This document shows positions 347 to 13,064 of a stretch of DNA of 57,151 nt, piece after piece. The position numbers and the translations under genes were made by a program. Under the pieces are notes generated by a model that was not told the origin of the DNA, ran no database searches, and worked only from the letters and a program-made list of their open reading frames with translations. Positions within the stretch are counted from its first letter, which is position 1. Each line of letters opens with the position of its first letter. Source of the stretch: a virus; IMG/VR virus record IMGVR_UViG_3300035211_000082, positions 1-57,151 of that record; one strand, written 5' to 3'.

Positions 347-697
347 TCATCCTCCGTTTATTTCATTATAAAGTTCTGATAATTCGCTAACCATATTTAA
401 TAACATACTGTTGCCATAATATTTGTAATAACATTCCGAAACAATATTTACTTGTTCGTATATTTCTTCATCGCAATATCTATCTCCTATATATAAAATA
501 TACGACTCATAAAATGCTTCCATAGCTTCAGAGCACGCATTGCGTTTTATATATTTTTCTAATGTCTCAAATTGGCTAAAATCATCAGGAAATTTATTAT
601 CATCATTTAAGTCTTTTGCTAAATCTCCATATATGTTGTCTTTGTTTAAATAAGTTTTTAACATATATTGCTTGTATGTCATCATTTCAGTAATCAT
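347..697 (-). CDS. hypothetical protein (116 aa)
   Basis: ORF with ggagga-type SD upstream (aggaggataacac ATG); no recognisable motif. Confidence 0.55.
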   Translation of the reverse strand: MITEMMTYKQYMLKTYLNKDNIYGDLAKDLNDDNKFPDDFSQFETLEKYIKRNACSEAMEAFYESYILYIGDRYCDEEIYEQVNIVSECYYKYYGNSMLLNMVSELSELYNEINGG

Positions 698-735
698 TGT
701 GTTATCCTCCTATTTGTAATTATTAGCTCTTTATG

Positions 736-2760: not shown

Positions 2761-2925
2761 TTAACCAGCTCCAATTTCTAATTTTTCAATAATCATTTTT
2801 TTACCTTCTATTTTCATAGTTACATATTCATCAAGCTTAAGATCTTCTTTTATTTTTTTAGGAACTAGCAAATATTCAGAATTGCCTATTTTCATTAACT
2901 GCCTTACTATTTTTTTATTTTTCAT
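2761..2925 (-). CDS. AbrB/MazE/SpoVT-type small DNA-binding protein (54 aa; not in ORF track)
   Basis: ATG at 2925 preceded by ggaggtg; MKNKKIVRQLMKIGNSEYLLVPKKIKEDLKL... fits the looped-hinge-helix pattern (IGNS..L.VPK.I); TAA immediately followed by helicase ATG. Confidence 0.6.
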   Translation of the reverse strand: MKNKKIVRQLMKIGNSEYLLVPKKIKEDLKLDEYVTMKIEGKKMIIEKLEIGAG

Positions 2926-2998
2926 GCCACACCTCCATATAATCTAATTTCTGCAACAATTAAATTATAGCATATAATCAAATCAAGATAAATATTTT

Positions 2999-3805
2999 TG
3001 TTACATTTTTTTTGTTACGTTTTTTTGTAACAGCTATAACTATTTATTTTAGCTGGTTATAGCTGTATTTAAATTTTGCTGTTACATTTTTTAAAAAATG
3101 TTACACCTGCATGTAACACTTGCAAGCTTGTATACTAGTAGAGTACAGCCATTTGTTACATTGTTACGCTTATTTTTTTTCATGTATTTATATATAAATA
3201 TATAAAAACGTAAACATATGTATGCATTTTTGTATTTTTTCTAAGTAGTTATAAAATAATATTATGTAACAATGTAACAAATATCTTATAATATAGTGTT
3301 TTTGCTGAATTGACCCTGTTACATTATTTTTTTTACATATATAACAATGTAACTTTTTATATATAAATCAAGTAATATAAATGGTTATAGCTGTTATAAA
3401 AAATGTAACAAGCAAATATATACCCTATTTTGCTTACATATTAGTAATTATTTTACATATATAATAAATTACAGCTGATTCTAATAAATAATAAGTAAAT
3501 AAGTTTTGTTACTTTGTTACCGCTCACATATATATAAGAAAAATAGCGGTTTTAGCTGGTAACAAAATCGGTAACACGAGGTAACAAAATTATAAGTCGT
3601 GTTACCGTTAAAACAAATCAAAATATATTTTTCTATATGGGGGTATAAATATATATATAAGTTACTTTAATAATAAAATAATATATATATAAGACTATGA
3701 CTAAATTTTTAGGGTAACTTTTAGGGTAACTTTAGGGTAACTTTTTTACATTTGAAAAAGTTACCCTATTACAAACCATTATTATTACTATGTTTATAAG
3801 GTAAC
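2999..3805. repeat. Iteron field / candidate replication origin
   Basis: 25 copies of GTAAC/GTTAC counted (often TGTTAC/TGTAACA, in pairs such as ttgttacattgttac, ggtaacaaaatcggtaacacgaggtaacaaaat), plus TTATAGCTG repeats; non-coding, adjacent to the helicase operon. Confidence 0.6.
3711..3767. repeat. Three tandem AGGGTAACTTT units plus one inverted copy AAAGTTACCCT
   Basis: agggtaacttt at 3711, 3723, 3734; aaagttaccct at 3757-3767. Confidence 0.85.
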
Positions 3806-3913
3806 CTATATTTAAACTGACATACTTATTAAAACAAATCGCATTTCACCTTAAAAAGATGACATATATATGATTTCACTAAAGTGGATTTCACAAAGTT
3901 TGAGTCTTGTAAA

Positions 3914-3939
3914 TTTTGATCCCGGCAAAGGAAAGAAAT
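3914..3939 (+). repeat. Left inverted repeat of the 890-bp non-coding module; contains CCGGCAAA motif
   Basis: ttttgatcccggcaaaggaaagaaat; reverse complement of 4778..4803 is ttttgatccccggcaaaagaaaagat (about 22/26 identical, 1 indel). Confidence 0.85.
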
Positions 3940-3960
3940 ACTCACTTAGTTTGTTAGATC

Positions 3961-3989
3961 TGTTAATTTAGATTTAGAAGTGTTATAAT
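3961..3989 (+). promoter_or_regulatory. candidate extended -10 promoter (TGtTATAAT)
   Basis: aagtgttataat; same RTGTTATAAT box recurs at 17947-57, 27261-70, 5033-42 (plus strand) and 15310-20 (minus strand). Confidence 0.35.
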
Positions 3990-4075
3990 TGTTGTGTGCA
4001 TTTTGATTATAGAACTTAGAATTGAAAAAAGTGGTTAAGAAATTAATCGCTTTTTTCGTGCTTGATTTCTTAGCT

Positions 4076-4099
4076 ATTCTTTCCTTTTGCTGGCTCAAA
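4076..4099 (-). repeat. Degenerate third copy of the module-end repeat
   Basis: attctttccttttgctggctcaaa; rc tttgagCCAGCAAAAGGAAAGAAT. Confidence 0.5.
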
Positions 4100-4302
4100 T
4101 ATTCACAACTATTCGATTGATTTTAAAACATTTGACTTGTTTCAAAATATTAAGATAAAATAAATTTATAAATATTTTTGATAAATATTTAAAATAATAA
4201 AATAACTAAGTATTTTATATTTTTTGTATATTTTGTAAAGAACTTTTGTATTTGTTAACAAGCTGGCAAATACATTTTTTTTGTGCTTATTTTGTCTTTG
4301 CA

Positions 4303-4330
4303 TTGACTTATTTTGAATATTTATTATAAT
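4303..4330 (+). promoter_or_regulatory. sigma70-type promoter TTGACT-N16-TATAAT
   Basis: cattgacttattttgaatatttattataat read directly; no ORF with an RBS follows for 700 nt. Confidence 0.6.
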
Positions 4331-4337
4331 TAACATG

Positions 4338-4645
4338 TTAACACAAAGTCTACTTTAGGCATTTTTCGACTTTACAAAAACGTACAATGTCAGGGCTTGT
4401 TGGAGTCAAGCAATCGAGAAACAGTATATACTTTATCTTGAGAGTTGGCGTAATTAGTGGCGTACGTCAGTCGACAAACTCAAAATCGTCACTGCCGTGT
4501 CTGGTAAACTAATGGTAAAGAAAAGTTATTGACGAATAACTAGTATCTTGGGTTCGATTCCCAAGTCAGGCTTTTATAAAATTCACTGAGGTTTACTATA
4601 TAAGATTAATTTAATGATTGGCGCTTGAAAGAGTGCTTTTTCTTT
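4338..4645 (+). ncRNA. candidate ncRNA (about 240-310 nt) ending in a hairpin series that includes a tRNA-like T-arm
   Basis: Starts after the 4303 promoter; locally higher GC. Hairpins: gcttg/caagc (4395-4411), agttatt-gacg-aataact (4524-4541), TTGGG-TTCGATT-CCCAA (4548-4564, canonical T-loop), then gtcaggctttt. Weak terminator gcgct..agtgc+T-run at 4621-4645. No cloverleaf found. Confidence 0.4.
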
Positions 4646-4687
4646 GCATAAATGATAAAATAGTATTTGTTTATAATTGTTTTTCAT
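4583..4687 (-). CDS. possible 34-aa ORF antisense to the 3' part of the candidate ncRNA
   Basis: agaggactaaaaaa ATG; MKNNYKQILFYHLCKEKALFQAPIIKLILYSKPQ; no similarity recognisable. Confidence 0.2.
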   Translation of the reverse strand: MKNNYKQILFYHLCKEKALFQAPIIKLILYSKPQ

Positions 4688-4777
4688 TTTTTTAGTCCTC
4701 TATAAGTTGATTTGTTGATTTGCTAGAAAGATATGAGTATTTGAAAGTTTTCGATACTTGTATCTTTTAGTTTGATT

Positions 4778-4803
4778 ATCTTTTCTTTTGCCGGGGATCA
4801 AAA
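4778..4803 (-). repeat. Right inverted repeat of the 890-bp non-coding module; contains TTTGCCGG motif
   Basis: atcttttcttttgccggggatcaaaa. Confidence 0.85.
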
Positions 4804-5013
4804 TATACGAATTACTATCTAAAAAACAAATCAACATCTCTTTTCAAAAAATAATATATATTTATCGTTTTTTTACTACTTTTTAAAGCCATTTACACAC
4901 TTAAAATAATTAAAGCTAATTTTATACGGCTAAAATTTAAATTGAGTATTTGGGCAATTAACTAACAAATAAAGGCATGTAAAACTTTTGTTATATATTT
5001 AACACTAAAGTAA

Positions 5014-5042
5014 TTGATTTATAATTAAAGTTGTGTTATTAT
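5014..5042 (+). promoter_or_regulatory. promoter TTGATT-N17-(TGt)TATTAT for the plus-strand block
   Basis: taattgatttataattaaagttgtgttattat; places the TSS after the 5041 ATG, supporting the 5074 start. Confidence 0.5.
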
Positions 5043-5073
5043 GTTAGAAAATAAATTATTGGAGGATAAAAAA

Positions 5074-5280
5074 ATGAGTAACTTTGATAGTCATAAAATA
5101 CCATTAACAAAAGATACGCCTGTAAGATTGCTAATGGATGACGGCACAGAATTATTCTTAGTATTAGACGGGAATAGTGTTGACATTAGAGCAAACCATT
5201 GTAATATTGCAATAAGGCCAAAAGCCGATAACCATATTACAATTATAAGGATTAATAGAACAATACCAAAAAAAGGATAA
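5074..5280 (+). CDS. hypothetical early protein (68 aa)
   Basis: ATG preceded by ggaggataaaaaa; internal Met of track ORF 5041..5280. Confidence 0.6.
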   Translation: MSNFDSHKIPLTKDTPVRLLMDDGTELFLVLDGNSVDIRANHCNIAIRPKADNHITIIRINRTIPKKG

Positions 5281-7545: not shown

Positions 7546-8100
7546 ATGAAAAAAATAAAAAGCTTATTTAAAAGAGATTATGACGGCAACAGAAAAGTTT
7601 ATAATGAAATTGTGCCAGGTTGCGAATGGGTAGCACATGGTGAGGGCGTAGCCACTAGAAAATTTAATGGTACGCCTTGCGCTATAATCAATGGCAAATT
7701 TTACAAAAGATATGATGTCAAAGATAAGGCTGTGCCAGTCGGGGCAATACCTTGTCAAAAAGAACCCGACATTGAAACCGGACATTTTCCACATTGGATA
7801 GAAATTGTTGATAATAAAGAAAATAAGTGGTTTATGGAAGGATATTATAATTTAGTAAATGCTGGACTTGCGATCAGTGGCACTTATGAACTATGCGGGC
7901 CTAAAATTAATGGCAATCCTGAAAAGTTTGAAAATCATTTTTTAGTGCATCATGGTTGCGAACAATTAGTAGATTGTCCTAGAACATTCTGGGGTATAAA
8001 AGAATATCTTGAGGATAAAGATATAGAGGGCATAGTATGGCATAGGGAAAATGGCGATATGGTTAAAATTAAAAAGAAAGATTTTGATTATAATATTTAA
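7546..8100 (+). CDS. conserved phage protein, possibly ligase-like nucleotidyltransferase fold
   Basis: 184 aa; ggaggattaaaat ATG; GEGVATRKFNGTPC resembles a KxDG-type lysine motif with N for D; weak call. Confidence 0.35.
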   Translation: MKKIKSLFKRDYDGNRKVYNEIVPGCEWVAHGEGVATRKFNGTPCAIINGKFYKRYDVKDKAVPVGAIPCQKEPDIETGHFPHWIEIVDNKENKWFMEGYYNLVNAGLAISGTYELCGPKINGNPEKFENHFLVHHGCEQLVDCPRTFWGIKEYLEDKDIEGIVWHRENGDMVKIKKKDFDYNI

Positions 8101-10814: not shown

Positions 10815-10870
10815 TTTAATCCTCCAATAAATTTACTTATTTTAAAAATTTAGATTATATTATATCATGT

Positions 10871-11113
10871 TCATAATCTATTAACAATGTCAAATTTTAA
10901 CTTAACAACGTTGTCTTTATTTTTAAGTAGCATAACAAGAAAATCGACTTGTCTATCATTTAAGTACACAGCCTCAAAAGGCCTACCAGGAGTTGAAACC
11001 TTTTGAGACTTAATTTTACCTAATTTTTTAAAATATTTTAAATATAATTCTATTGCTCTTATTACAGTGCAATGTCTTATATTTAGTTTTTTTGATAGTT
11101 CTATTGAATTCAT
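10871..11113 (-). CDS. small HTH DNA-binding protein
   Basis: 80 aa; ELSKKLNIRHCTVIRAIE helix-turn-helix-like. Confidence 0.5.
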   Translation of the reverse strand: MNSIELSKKLNIRHCTVIRAIELYLKYFKKLGKIKSQKVSTPGRPFEAVYLNDRQVDFLVMLLKNKDNVVKLKFDIVNRL

Positions 11114-12884: not shown

Positions 12885-13064
12885 TAGTGAATTTATTTGC
12901 AAACTAGAAAAAGTAAGCAGAATTTCACTATTTAGATAATGAGTAGGTTCGACTCCTACCAGGAACATTATCGAAAAATCGTGACACGACTCGAGAGTGG
13001 ATCATGTGATCAGGTTAAGTCGCCAGGTTTCTTAACCATAAAAGATCAAAACCTGGCTTTATTT
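12885..13064 (+). ncRNA. candidate plus-strand ncRNA with a second tRNA-like T-arm, in a gap between minus-strand genes
   Basis: hairpin agtgaa..ttcact (12887-12929); GTAGG-TTCGACT-CCTAC (12943-12959) then caggaac; palindrome gatcaTGtgatc; plus-oriented terminator at the end. Promoter unclear. Confidence 0.35.
13022..13064 (+). terminator. plus-strand intrinsic terminator
   Basis: gccaggttt-N18-aaacctggc followed by tttattt; the T-run is present only on the plus strand. Confidence 0.55.

Follow-up and report, generated by a model that had tools for sequence, protein, structure and literature searches.

In its tRNA cluster, phage T4 encodes species 1 and species 2 RNA (rnaC, rnaD), which carry no annotation beyond that of small stable RNAs and are the closest known kind to the RNA described here; rnaC is processed like a tRNA, and we know of no function for either of the two. 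The RNA in question lies within positions 4303–4645 of the IMG/VR virus record IMGVR_UViG_3300035211_000082. This record is rated as a complete virus genome; it is 57,151 bp long, carries direct repeats at its termini and has about 26% GC. It was analysed in its full length and is called the window in the following. At this site a tRNA-framed element of 74 nt (4499–4572) stands behind a conserved, non-coding leader. Like this element, rnaC of T4 (L066:1109-1247) is phage-encoded, occupies a tRNA slot and possesses acceptor-like ends, a T-arm (CCGGG-UUCGAAU-CCCGG) and, as D and anticodon arms, hairpins which are not those of a tRNA; the window RNA, too, combines paired ends and a canonical T-arm with a middle part that does not decode. 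The two RNAs share no homology, however. T4 rnaC has 139 nt with large inserts and is located in the tRNA array of a Gram-negative myovirus, whereas the RNA of the window has 74 nt, a tRNA-sized outline and a place of its own behind a 160-nt conserved leader near the origin. The rnaC gene was present in 740 phage records, in most of them unannotated.

Other described systems share single traits with the locus. In MALAT1-mascRNA and in the tRNA-like/pre-miRNA units of murid herpesvirus 68 (MHV68), an anticodon-less, tRNA-shaped module is joined to a non-coding RNA and is split from it by tRNA enzymes, as would also be the case for the window RNA; those systems are eukaryotic or belong to a eukaryotic virus, there is no shared ancestry, and MHV68 has its tRNA-like piece at the 5' end. 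Bacterial Y RNAs of the YrlA type are permuted (T arm, closed acceptor, D arm), contain the Ro motif GNCGAA(N)G and are encoded within 4 kb of rsr; YrlA of Mycobacterium smegmatis is cut by RNase P and given CCA, and Yrn1 of Deinococcus radiodurans is an unpermuted mimic with a shortened "anticodon" loop (PMC4201824). The window element resembles them in the T-arm and the GG of the D-loop within a tRNA-mimicking domain, but its acceptor ends are open and its arms are not permuted: the 5' strand of the acceptor comes first, followed by the D region, the hairpin, the T arm and the 3' strand of the acceptor. The motif GNCGAA(N)G was not seen in the sequence of 4337–4645 as read, Rfam gave no match to a Y RNA with E up to 10, and a TROVE/Rsr gene was not found: up to E 1, no part of the complete genome matched TROVE, which a control search detects in D. 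radiodurans. Transfer-messenger RNA (tmRNA) also has an acceptor, a T-arm, a reduced D region and no anticodon; unlike it, the window element possesses neither a tag frame nor pseudoknots nor the G3-U70 pair (3-70 is C-G, with G at position 70), and its acceptor strands are 60 nt apart instead of about 300 nt. ARAGORN (default and relaxed tmRNA mode) and the Rfam model RF00023 gave no match to tmRNA. Of a preliminary description, which had been made from the sequence letters and had proposed a tRNA-like 3' module comparable to tmRNA or Y RNA ends, as a possible recruiter of RNase P, RNase Z or the CCA-adding enzyme, the module on the plus strand has thus been retained, with a full acceptor/T frame, and the two analogies have been given up. 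A further system is that of tRNA-Tyr as counter-defence cargo, documented in T-even phages (T6 versus Septu, PMC13096335). A sister of the window phage, L049, has tRNA-Tyr in exactly the slot of the element; a counter-defence role of the window cargo would have to be that of a decoy, since there is no anticodon loop which could replace a cleaved tRNA.

On balance we favour the reading that 4303–4645 is a single transcription unit on the plus strand, in which a leader and a tRNA mimic would be transcribed together and separated by processing, the mimic being the cargo. On this reading the unit is a fixed promoter-leader platform with exchangeable tRNA-type cargo, in a complete, non-integrating phage of 57 kb. 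The data show the anatomy of the unit, its conservation and the exchange of cargo, from which processing and function are inferred. The following features were recognised in the window, partly by comparison with two close relatives, L004 and L049.

4303..4330, plus strand: sigma-70-type promoter TTGACT-16-TATAAT, 11/12 consensus matches; start of transcription expected near 4337.
4337..4498, plus strand: non-coding leader RNA of about 160 nt, conserved within the clade (about 89% in L004 and L049).
4499..4505, plus strand: 5' strand of the acceptor, GUCUGGU; RNase P predicted to cut between 4498 and 4499, homology to relatives stopping at 4496/4497.
4506..4523, plus strand: D region, largely unpaired, GG at 4514-4515, UAAUGGUAAA; from the Infernal alignment and a relaxed-threshold ARAGORN drawing.
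4524..4541, plus strand: sealed "anticodon" arm with seven Watson-Crick pairs and a GACG tetraloop, AGTTATT-GACG-AATAACT; from the fold and a hairpin scan.
4548..4564, plus strand: T-arm UUGGG-UUCGAUU-CCCAA; a sixth pair, C4547-G4565, is possible.
4565..4572, plus strand: acceptor 3' strand GUCAGGC and discriminator U4572; CCA not encoded, UUU next.
4573..4645, plus strand: 3' trailer, in which a terminator-like hairpin occupies 4620-4637, with a T-run; no alignment to L004 or L049.

Searches by DNA in collections of phages, viral contigs, metagenomes and genomes found no relatives. Those used here were obtained with two protein anchors, the Gam-like protein and the RecD-like helicase, which led to L004 (JGI, 29.7 kb) and L049/L050 (ENA, 57–63 kb), and to the more distant L051/L052, L061 and L062/L063; the amino acid identity of the helicase to that of the window is 83% in L004, 86% in L049 and 53% in L051. 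Among viral contigs, the 674-aa neighbour and the Gam-like protein yielded no relatives. A search with the RNA ligase led to L002 and L003, both without the module, and a search with Rha to 36 loci, none of them in this clade. Neither the T-arm/acceptor word nor three words from the leader had an exact match in the viral, metagenome and genome collections, which for the leader words included 185,579 species genomes; one 20-mer matched two unrelated coding sequences, which was ascribed to chance.

The leader is the part which connects the relatives. Positions 4287–4496 of the window are 89.6% identical to L004:1126-922 (minus strand) and positions 4297–4497 are 88.7% identical to L049:1550-1348 (minus strand), with a baseline of 80–82% DNA identity for the helicase genes and about 70% for the non-coding island outside this block. 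Two DNA runs from marine sediment (X2, X3) also contain contigs which match 4297–4497 at 90–100%; since these runs may be the samples behind L049/L050, they were not counted as independent of the latter. In L004, L049 and both sediment runs the likeness ends at 4496/4497, and the slot behind this point is occupied as follows.

L049, slot: tRNA-Tyr(GTA), beginning at the next base after the leader (ARAGORN; Rfam, 52.9 bits).
L004, slot: a spacer of 11 nt, then a tRNA-framed RNA of about 150 nt.

One base separates the loose end of the X2 contig from the tRNA-Tyr of L049, and the loose end of X3 matches the RNA of L004. The parts recognised in this RNA are an acceptor stem of 6 bp, a well-formed D-arm (GCUU/AAGC), an extended arm with UAUAU-GACG-AUAUA at its tip, an extra arm, also long, and the T-loop GGGUUCGAAUCCC. 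An interpretation as an intron-containing tRNA was rejected, ARAGORN calling it only at relaxed thresholds and amid many false calls. In the sediment relatives the likeness resumes from about 4640–4690, so the exchanged cassette extends over roughly 4498–4690. To judge from these alignments, the slot of the window is a site of cargo exchange between near-identical phages.

In the more distant L051, a homologue of the L004 RNA is present (79.5% over 83 nt), which is also GACG-tipped and has a compensatory change from C-G to A-U in the acceptor, as read from the sequences. Immediately upstream of it, behind a promoter of its own (TTGACG-17-TATAAT) and an unrelated leader, lies a second element which is similar to that of the window. 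In it, the region ..ACGGUAAAA.. between a 7-bp acceptor strand and a closed hairpin is unpaired; a T-arm of 6 bp, the discriminator U and a U-run are present as well, and the fold has a z-score of -3.2. Where the D region of the window stands, L051 shows ..UAACGGUAAAA... Three T-stem pairs are compensatory between the two elements, and most acceptor pairs, as read from the sequences, differ on both sides; only the covariation of the T-stem was counted, because the automatic alignment misplaced the acceptor strand. The equivalent gap of L062/L063 contains two tandem T-arms. Anticodon-less tRNA-framed RNAs adjoining the origin are, as far as can be read from these genomes, a recurrent trait of this phage group.

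The 74 nt of the window element fold as a complete tRNA frame, with a 7-bp acceptor, a GG-bearing D region, a perfect T-arm and the discriminator U; acceptor stem, an unpaired D region of 18 nt, sealed hairpin and T-arm are present in the minimum free energy fold as well as in the centroid fold (RNAfold). The preliminary description had correctly noticed the hairpin agttatt-gacg-aataact (4524–4541) and the T-arm TTGGG-TTCGATT-CCCAA (4548–4564), with GTCAGGC and TTTT following, and had stated that no acceptor, D or anticodon arm could be built. As to the acceptor this was an oversight: GTCTGGT at 4499–4505 pairs over 7 bp with GTCAGGC at 4565–4571 (four Watson-Crick and three G-U pairs), the Rfam tRNA model aligns end to end, and the distant partners suggested at 4393 and 4061 are not needed. 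As to the other two arms, the D-stem is weak (at most 2 bp) and there is no 7-nt anticodon loop. As in a tRNA, the 7-bp acceptor is stacked on a T-stem of 5 bp whose loop agrees with UUCRANY; in place of a 5-bp anticodon stem with a 7-nt loop it has an arm of 7 bp with a tetraloop, or an 8-nt loop at best, and a D-stem of 3–4 bp is absent.

The Rfam tRNA model RF00005 spans all 71 positions on 4499–4572 with 15.8 bits versus a gathering cut-off of 29 (E 4.8 in a scan of 1.2 kb and 0.054 genome-wide, the best match in the genome). The fold has a z-score of -2.2, and 7 of 200 shuffles were as good. On 4300–4700, ARAGORN and Rfam reported no tRNA, tmRNA or other family at default or gathering cut-offs, and Rfam in E-value mode gave nothing except the sub-threshold tRNA match and noise. 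A regular tRNA was rejected on the same grounds; ARAGORN found 0 genes at default and called "tRNA-?(Val|Arg)(gacg)" only at -ps80, among 13 calls, most of them dubious. A loose pattern of a T-arm with 7-bp closure, G-U pairs allowed, was met in 69 of 200 dinucleotide shuffles, so the acceptor closure alone proves little. The weight for the element lies in the best covariance model match of the genome, in the z-score of the fold and, above all, in its start at the very place where the homology of the relatives ends and the tRNA of one relative starts.

The sealed arm can also be drawn with a 5-bp stem and an 8-nt loop, UUGACGAA, which resembles the loop of tRNA-Arg(ACG), U33-A34-C35-G36-A37-A38, with one inserted G; as judged from its letters, the arm is incapable of normal decoding in either loop reading. 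Hairpins of at least 5 bp with a GACG cap numbered 5 among 4,232 tetraloop hairpins on both strands of nine sequences, and three of these five are "anticodon" arms of tRNA-like elements (window, L004:872-859 and L051:3836-3819), all in the context U-GACG-A. They represent two independent occurrences, since the elements of L004 and L051 are homologues. The hairpin tips of rnaC in T4 and in a Karamvirus (L067) read ..UUUGACGGAA.. and ..UUUGACGAAA.., respectively, the change in the latter leaving the stem paired; the tip is the UGACG(A/G)A word which also caps the sealed arms of the window, L004 and L051, and it resembles the UUGACGAA of the window. The match of the GACG word to T4 rnaC is a lead and not a finding.

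The strong promoter proposed in the preliminary description is the best scoring one in 2800–5200 and reads TTGACA-16-TATAAT at the same site of L004 and L049 (alignment A2); a supposed copy at 10831–10871 turned out to be an AT-rich resemblance only. The raised GC content could be quantified as 0.355–0.38 across 4301–4600 versus 0.17–0.25 in the flanks. There is also, as had been said, no open reading frame (ORF) preceded by a Shine-Dalgarno sequence: the sole ORF of at least 40 aa on the plus strand, 4387–4512 (41 codons), is without one. It was rejected as a coding sequence, six of six differences from L004 altering a residue or ending the frame early; the position of the stop codon also varies among relatives, and in L049 the frame continues into the tRNA (A2). 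The strand had been considered uncertain on account of a small antisense ORF. This ORF exists (4583–4687, 34 aa), but the strand was judged to be plus, because the promoter is conserved in relatives, the T-loop consensus occurs on the plus strand only and the T-run of the terminator is on the plus strand.

According to the favoured reading, the consensus promoter would give rise to a primary transcript of about 310 nt, consisting of the leader of about 160 nt, the 74-nt tRNA-framed RNA and a trailer up to the terminator. By analogy with tRNA maturation, RNase P and RNase Z would read the stacked acceptor/T-arm helix with the GG of the D region. RNase P would cut between 4498 and 4499, and RNase Z after the discriminator U4572, followed by addition of CCA, since CCA is not encoded. 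The products would be a leader RNA of about 162 nt, its 3' end defined by the cut, and a stable tRNA mimic of 74–77 nt. With its anticodon arm sealed by 7 bp and GACG, the mimic could not decode; it would be a selected cargo and would most likely act as a decoy or sponge which binds a tRNA-recognising factor. Such a role as cargo is favoured over that of a mere processing handle, because a working tRNA fills the slot in sister phages, because the sealed arm looks selected, and because the distant L051 keeps two such RNAs behind another leader.

Several points weigh against this. The covariance model score of 15.8 bits is about half of the tRNA cut-off, three of the seven acceptor pairs are G-U, the D-arm is degenerate, with a stem of at most 2 bp, and the acceptor closure had to be discarded as statistical evidence, being within chance by the loose test. 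The exact cargo of the window was found in no other record, and among the sequencing runs listed for the stretch there was no RNA run, the matching contigs being from DNA. Full leader sequences number just three, all from close relatives (helicase 83–86% aa identity), and L049, X2 and X3 may share sediment samples and would then not be fully independent. RNAalifold predicted 40 pairs on the three leaders with 0 compensatory changes, and the leader could be conserved as DNA, since it adjoins the iterons of the origin. A secondary structure of the leader was therefore rejected; the fold of the single sequence, too, is no better than that of shuffles (z -0.2), and a possible hairpin, GGCGUA/UACGUC, whose loop would pair downstream, agrees with one-sided changes only. 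Thus the conservation suggested as a check in the preliminary description was found in the leader (about 89% in L004/L049) and the covariation was not; for the element, compensatory pairs were counted in the T-stem, in the comparison with L051.

The most serious alternative assigns the function to the leader, as a trans-acting small RNA or a cis element; the RNase P substrate would then merely set its 3' end, stabilise it or terminate it, in the way of mascRNA and MALAT1, and the tRNA-like piece would be without a task of its own. In favour of this, conservation is higher in the leader than in the cargo, the boundary lies exactly at the tRNA 5' end in all relatives, and the cargo may be a real tRNA, a 150-nt RNA or a 74-nt RNA, the acceptor/T frame being the common part. 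Such a handle would, however, leave unexplained why a perfectly paired, GACG-capped arm occurs in two types of elements from three phages, and why L051 has two tandem tRNA-like RNAs behind an unrelated leader. Moreover, no structure or target of the leader found support, and no complementarity of the leader to other parts of the genome was detected. Three leader sequences without covariation do not separate leader from cargo as the functional RNA; we regard the former as possible, but unlikely.

Appreciably less likely still would be a decaying tRNA pseudogene, similar to tRNA-Arg(ACG) or tRNA-Val(GAC), which has lost anticodon loop and D-arm and drifts in the slot. The score of 15.8 versus 29 bits, the D-stem of at most 2 bp, the three G-U pairs of the acceptor, the call by ARAGORN only at the 80% threshold and the presence of the cargo in one genome only would all be expected from it. 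It was ranked low, since random decay should break pairs and not build seven Watson-Crick pairs in an arm of 18–20 nt, where 17 are normal. Besides, the T-arm shows no flaw, the design recurs in L051 with another sequence and compensated stems, and the exchange of the cassette among near-identical phages suggests a live cargo.

The surroundings of the unit point to a replication origin. The unit is situated in an ORF-poor stretch of 2.1 kb (2925–5041), which is flanked by a leftward block of replication-type genes and by rightward early genes on the plus strand. Iteron arrays with the words GTTACA and GGTAAC occupy the left part of this island (2925–3900), and a stretch with 17% GC (4100–4300) lies between them and the promoter-leader unit. 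The island has been kept next to different initiators, VapE-like in L004 and D5_N in L049, each with its own iterons. The conservation might accordingly concern the DNA, the promoter-leader being part of the origin or of another cis site, e.g., an outward promoter which unwinds the 17%-GC stretch, with the tRNA genes as passengers. The location of the unit between iterons and AT-rich stretch (4100–4300) on one side and early genes on the other, the same island beside the initiators of L004 and L049, and palindromes in the leader DNA (e.g., 4414–4441) would suit this interpretation, which is compatible with the RNA readings; but it cannot account for the base-exact end at the tRNA 5' end, is silent on the sealed frame and appears very improbable as the whole explanation. 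Finally, an attP-type fragment of a host tRNA or a chance T-arm can practically be dismissed, although phage attachment sites often hold the 3' part of a tRNA and the loose pattern arose in 69 of 200 shuffles, since the element has the whole tRNA frame and not only a 3' part, the slot holds a tRNA in a relative, and a tyrosine or serine recombinase is missing, with no PF00589 or PF00239 match in the complete window genome. The host of the phage is probably Gram-positive, because an LPXTG-anchored protein is encoded.

Some further observations were made in the window and its relatives. Inverted repeats on the word CCGGCAAA (window 3909–3944, 4077–4099 and 4773–4808) border the non-coding island and its first small unit; the island of L004 and L049 is flanked by the same words. 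This small unit, 3966–4065 (plus strand), consists of a promoter-like TTAGAT..TATAAT, followed by a 16-bp hairpin and T-run (4023–4058), and has been kept in L004 and L049 with a stem change from U-G to U-A. At 12885–13064 (plus strand), with minus-strand genes on either side, a second T-arm, GTAGG-TTCGACT-CCTAC, is nested in the stem GATAATG/CATTATC and followed by a plus-strand terminator, GCCAGGTTT..AAACCTGGC with a T-run; the tRNA model matches only locally (11.6 bits), and this is probably another small RNA gene. The gene at 7546–8100 (plus strand), inside a local GC peak, encodes an RNA ligase of the RLIG1 type with 184 aa and a KFNG motif (matches: phrog_14301, E 2e-69; PDB 9c6l, E 6e-12). 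Such a ligase fits a setting of tRNA damage, though it is 3 kb away from the unit.

In L049:1660-1900 (minus strand), two circularly permuted tRNA-like elements were seen, consisting of a T-arm, an acceptor closed by a UUAUACGU loop and a GG-containing D-arm. Ahead of them lies a DUF7873 gene, and the promoter of this gene duplicates that of the leader. The arms are arranged as in YrlA, but the elements lack the Ro-binding motif, and the only match is a weak one to rli62 (RF01486, 22.4 bits). At L004:150-222 (minus strand) Rfam recognises a tRNA (42.3 bits); its anticodon loop has 8 nt, and ARAGORN gives the four-base anticodon "agaa". Two more conserved non-coding blocks, 98% and 91% identical between the two phages, are located downstream of the cargo slot in L049:1050-1260 and L004:1-130, 620-720 (minus strand) and are absent from the window. 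The tandem T-arms in the origin-adjacent gap of L062:4290-4420 (minus strand) read GAGGG-TTCGAGT-CCCTY, each preceded by AAGGTTA..GAGA.

What is particular to this locus is the combination of a conserved leader, a slot which is swappable to the exact base and has a true tRNA as one alternative, and an arm sealed with GACG. A more speculative extension, which we consider hardly more than an outside chance, would make the platform a device for expression and processing of exchangeable counter-defence cargo, with the sealed mimic as an uncleavable decoy of an anticodon-loop nuclease or of a loop-reading enzyme. If true, the tRNA-Tyr of the sister phage would replace a tRNA destroyed by a host nuclease, and the tip of the mimic, UUGACGAA, would copy a loop of the tRNA-Arg(ACG) type plus one base; the UGACG(A/G)A tip, also present on the T4 species 1 RNA, would then suggest that phage tRNA-framed RNAs have a function in common. 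Gene finders miss tRNA-shaped phage RNAs without an anticodon, of which the T4 species 1 and 2 RNAs are the best known, and a result of 0 tRNAs from ARAGORN and Rfam does not mean a phage without tRNA-type genes. The three cargos among near-identical phages, i.e., a tRNA-Tyr, a tRNA-framed RNA of 150 nt and a sealed mimic of 74 nt, amount to a natural "swap experiment". This makes testable whether the tRNA frame does no more than offer RNase P and RNase Z a handle, or whether such mimics have targets of their own, for example tRNA-directed host defences.

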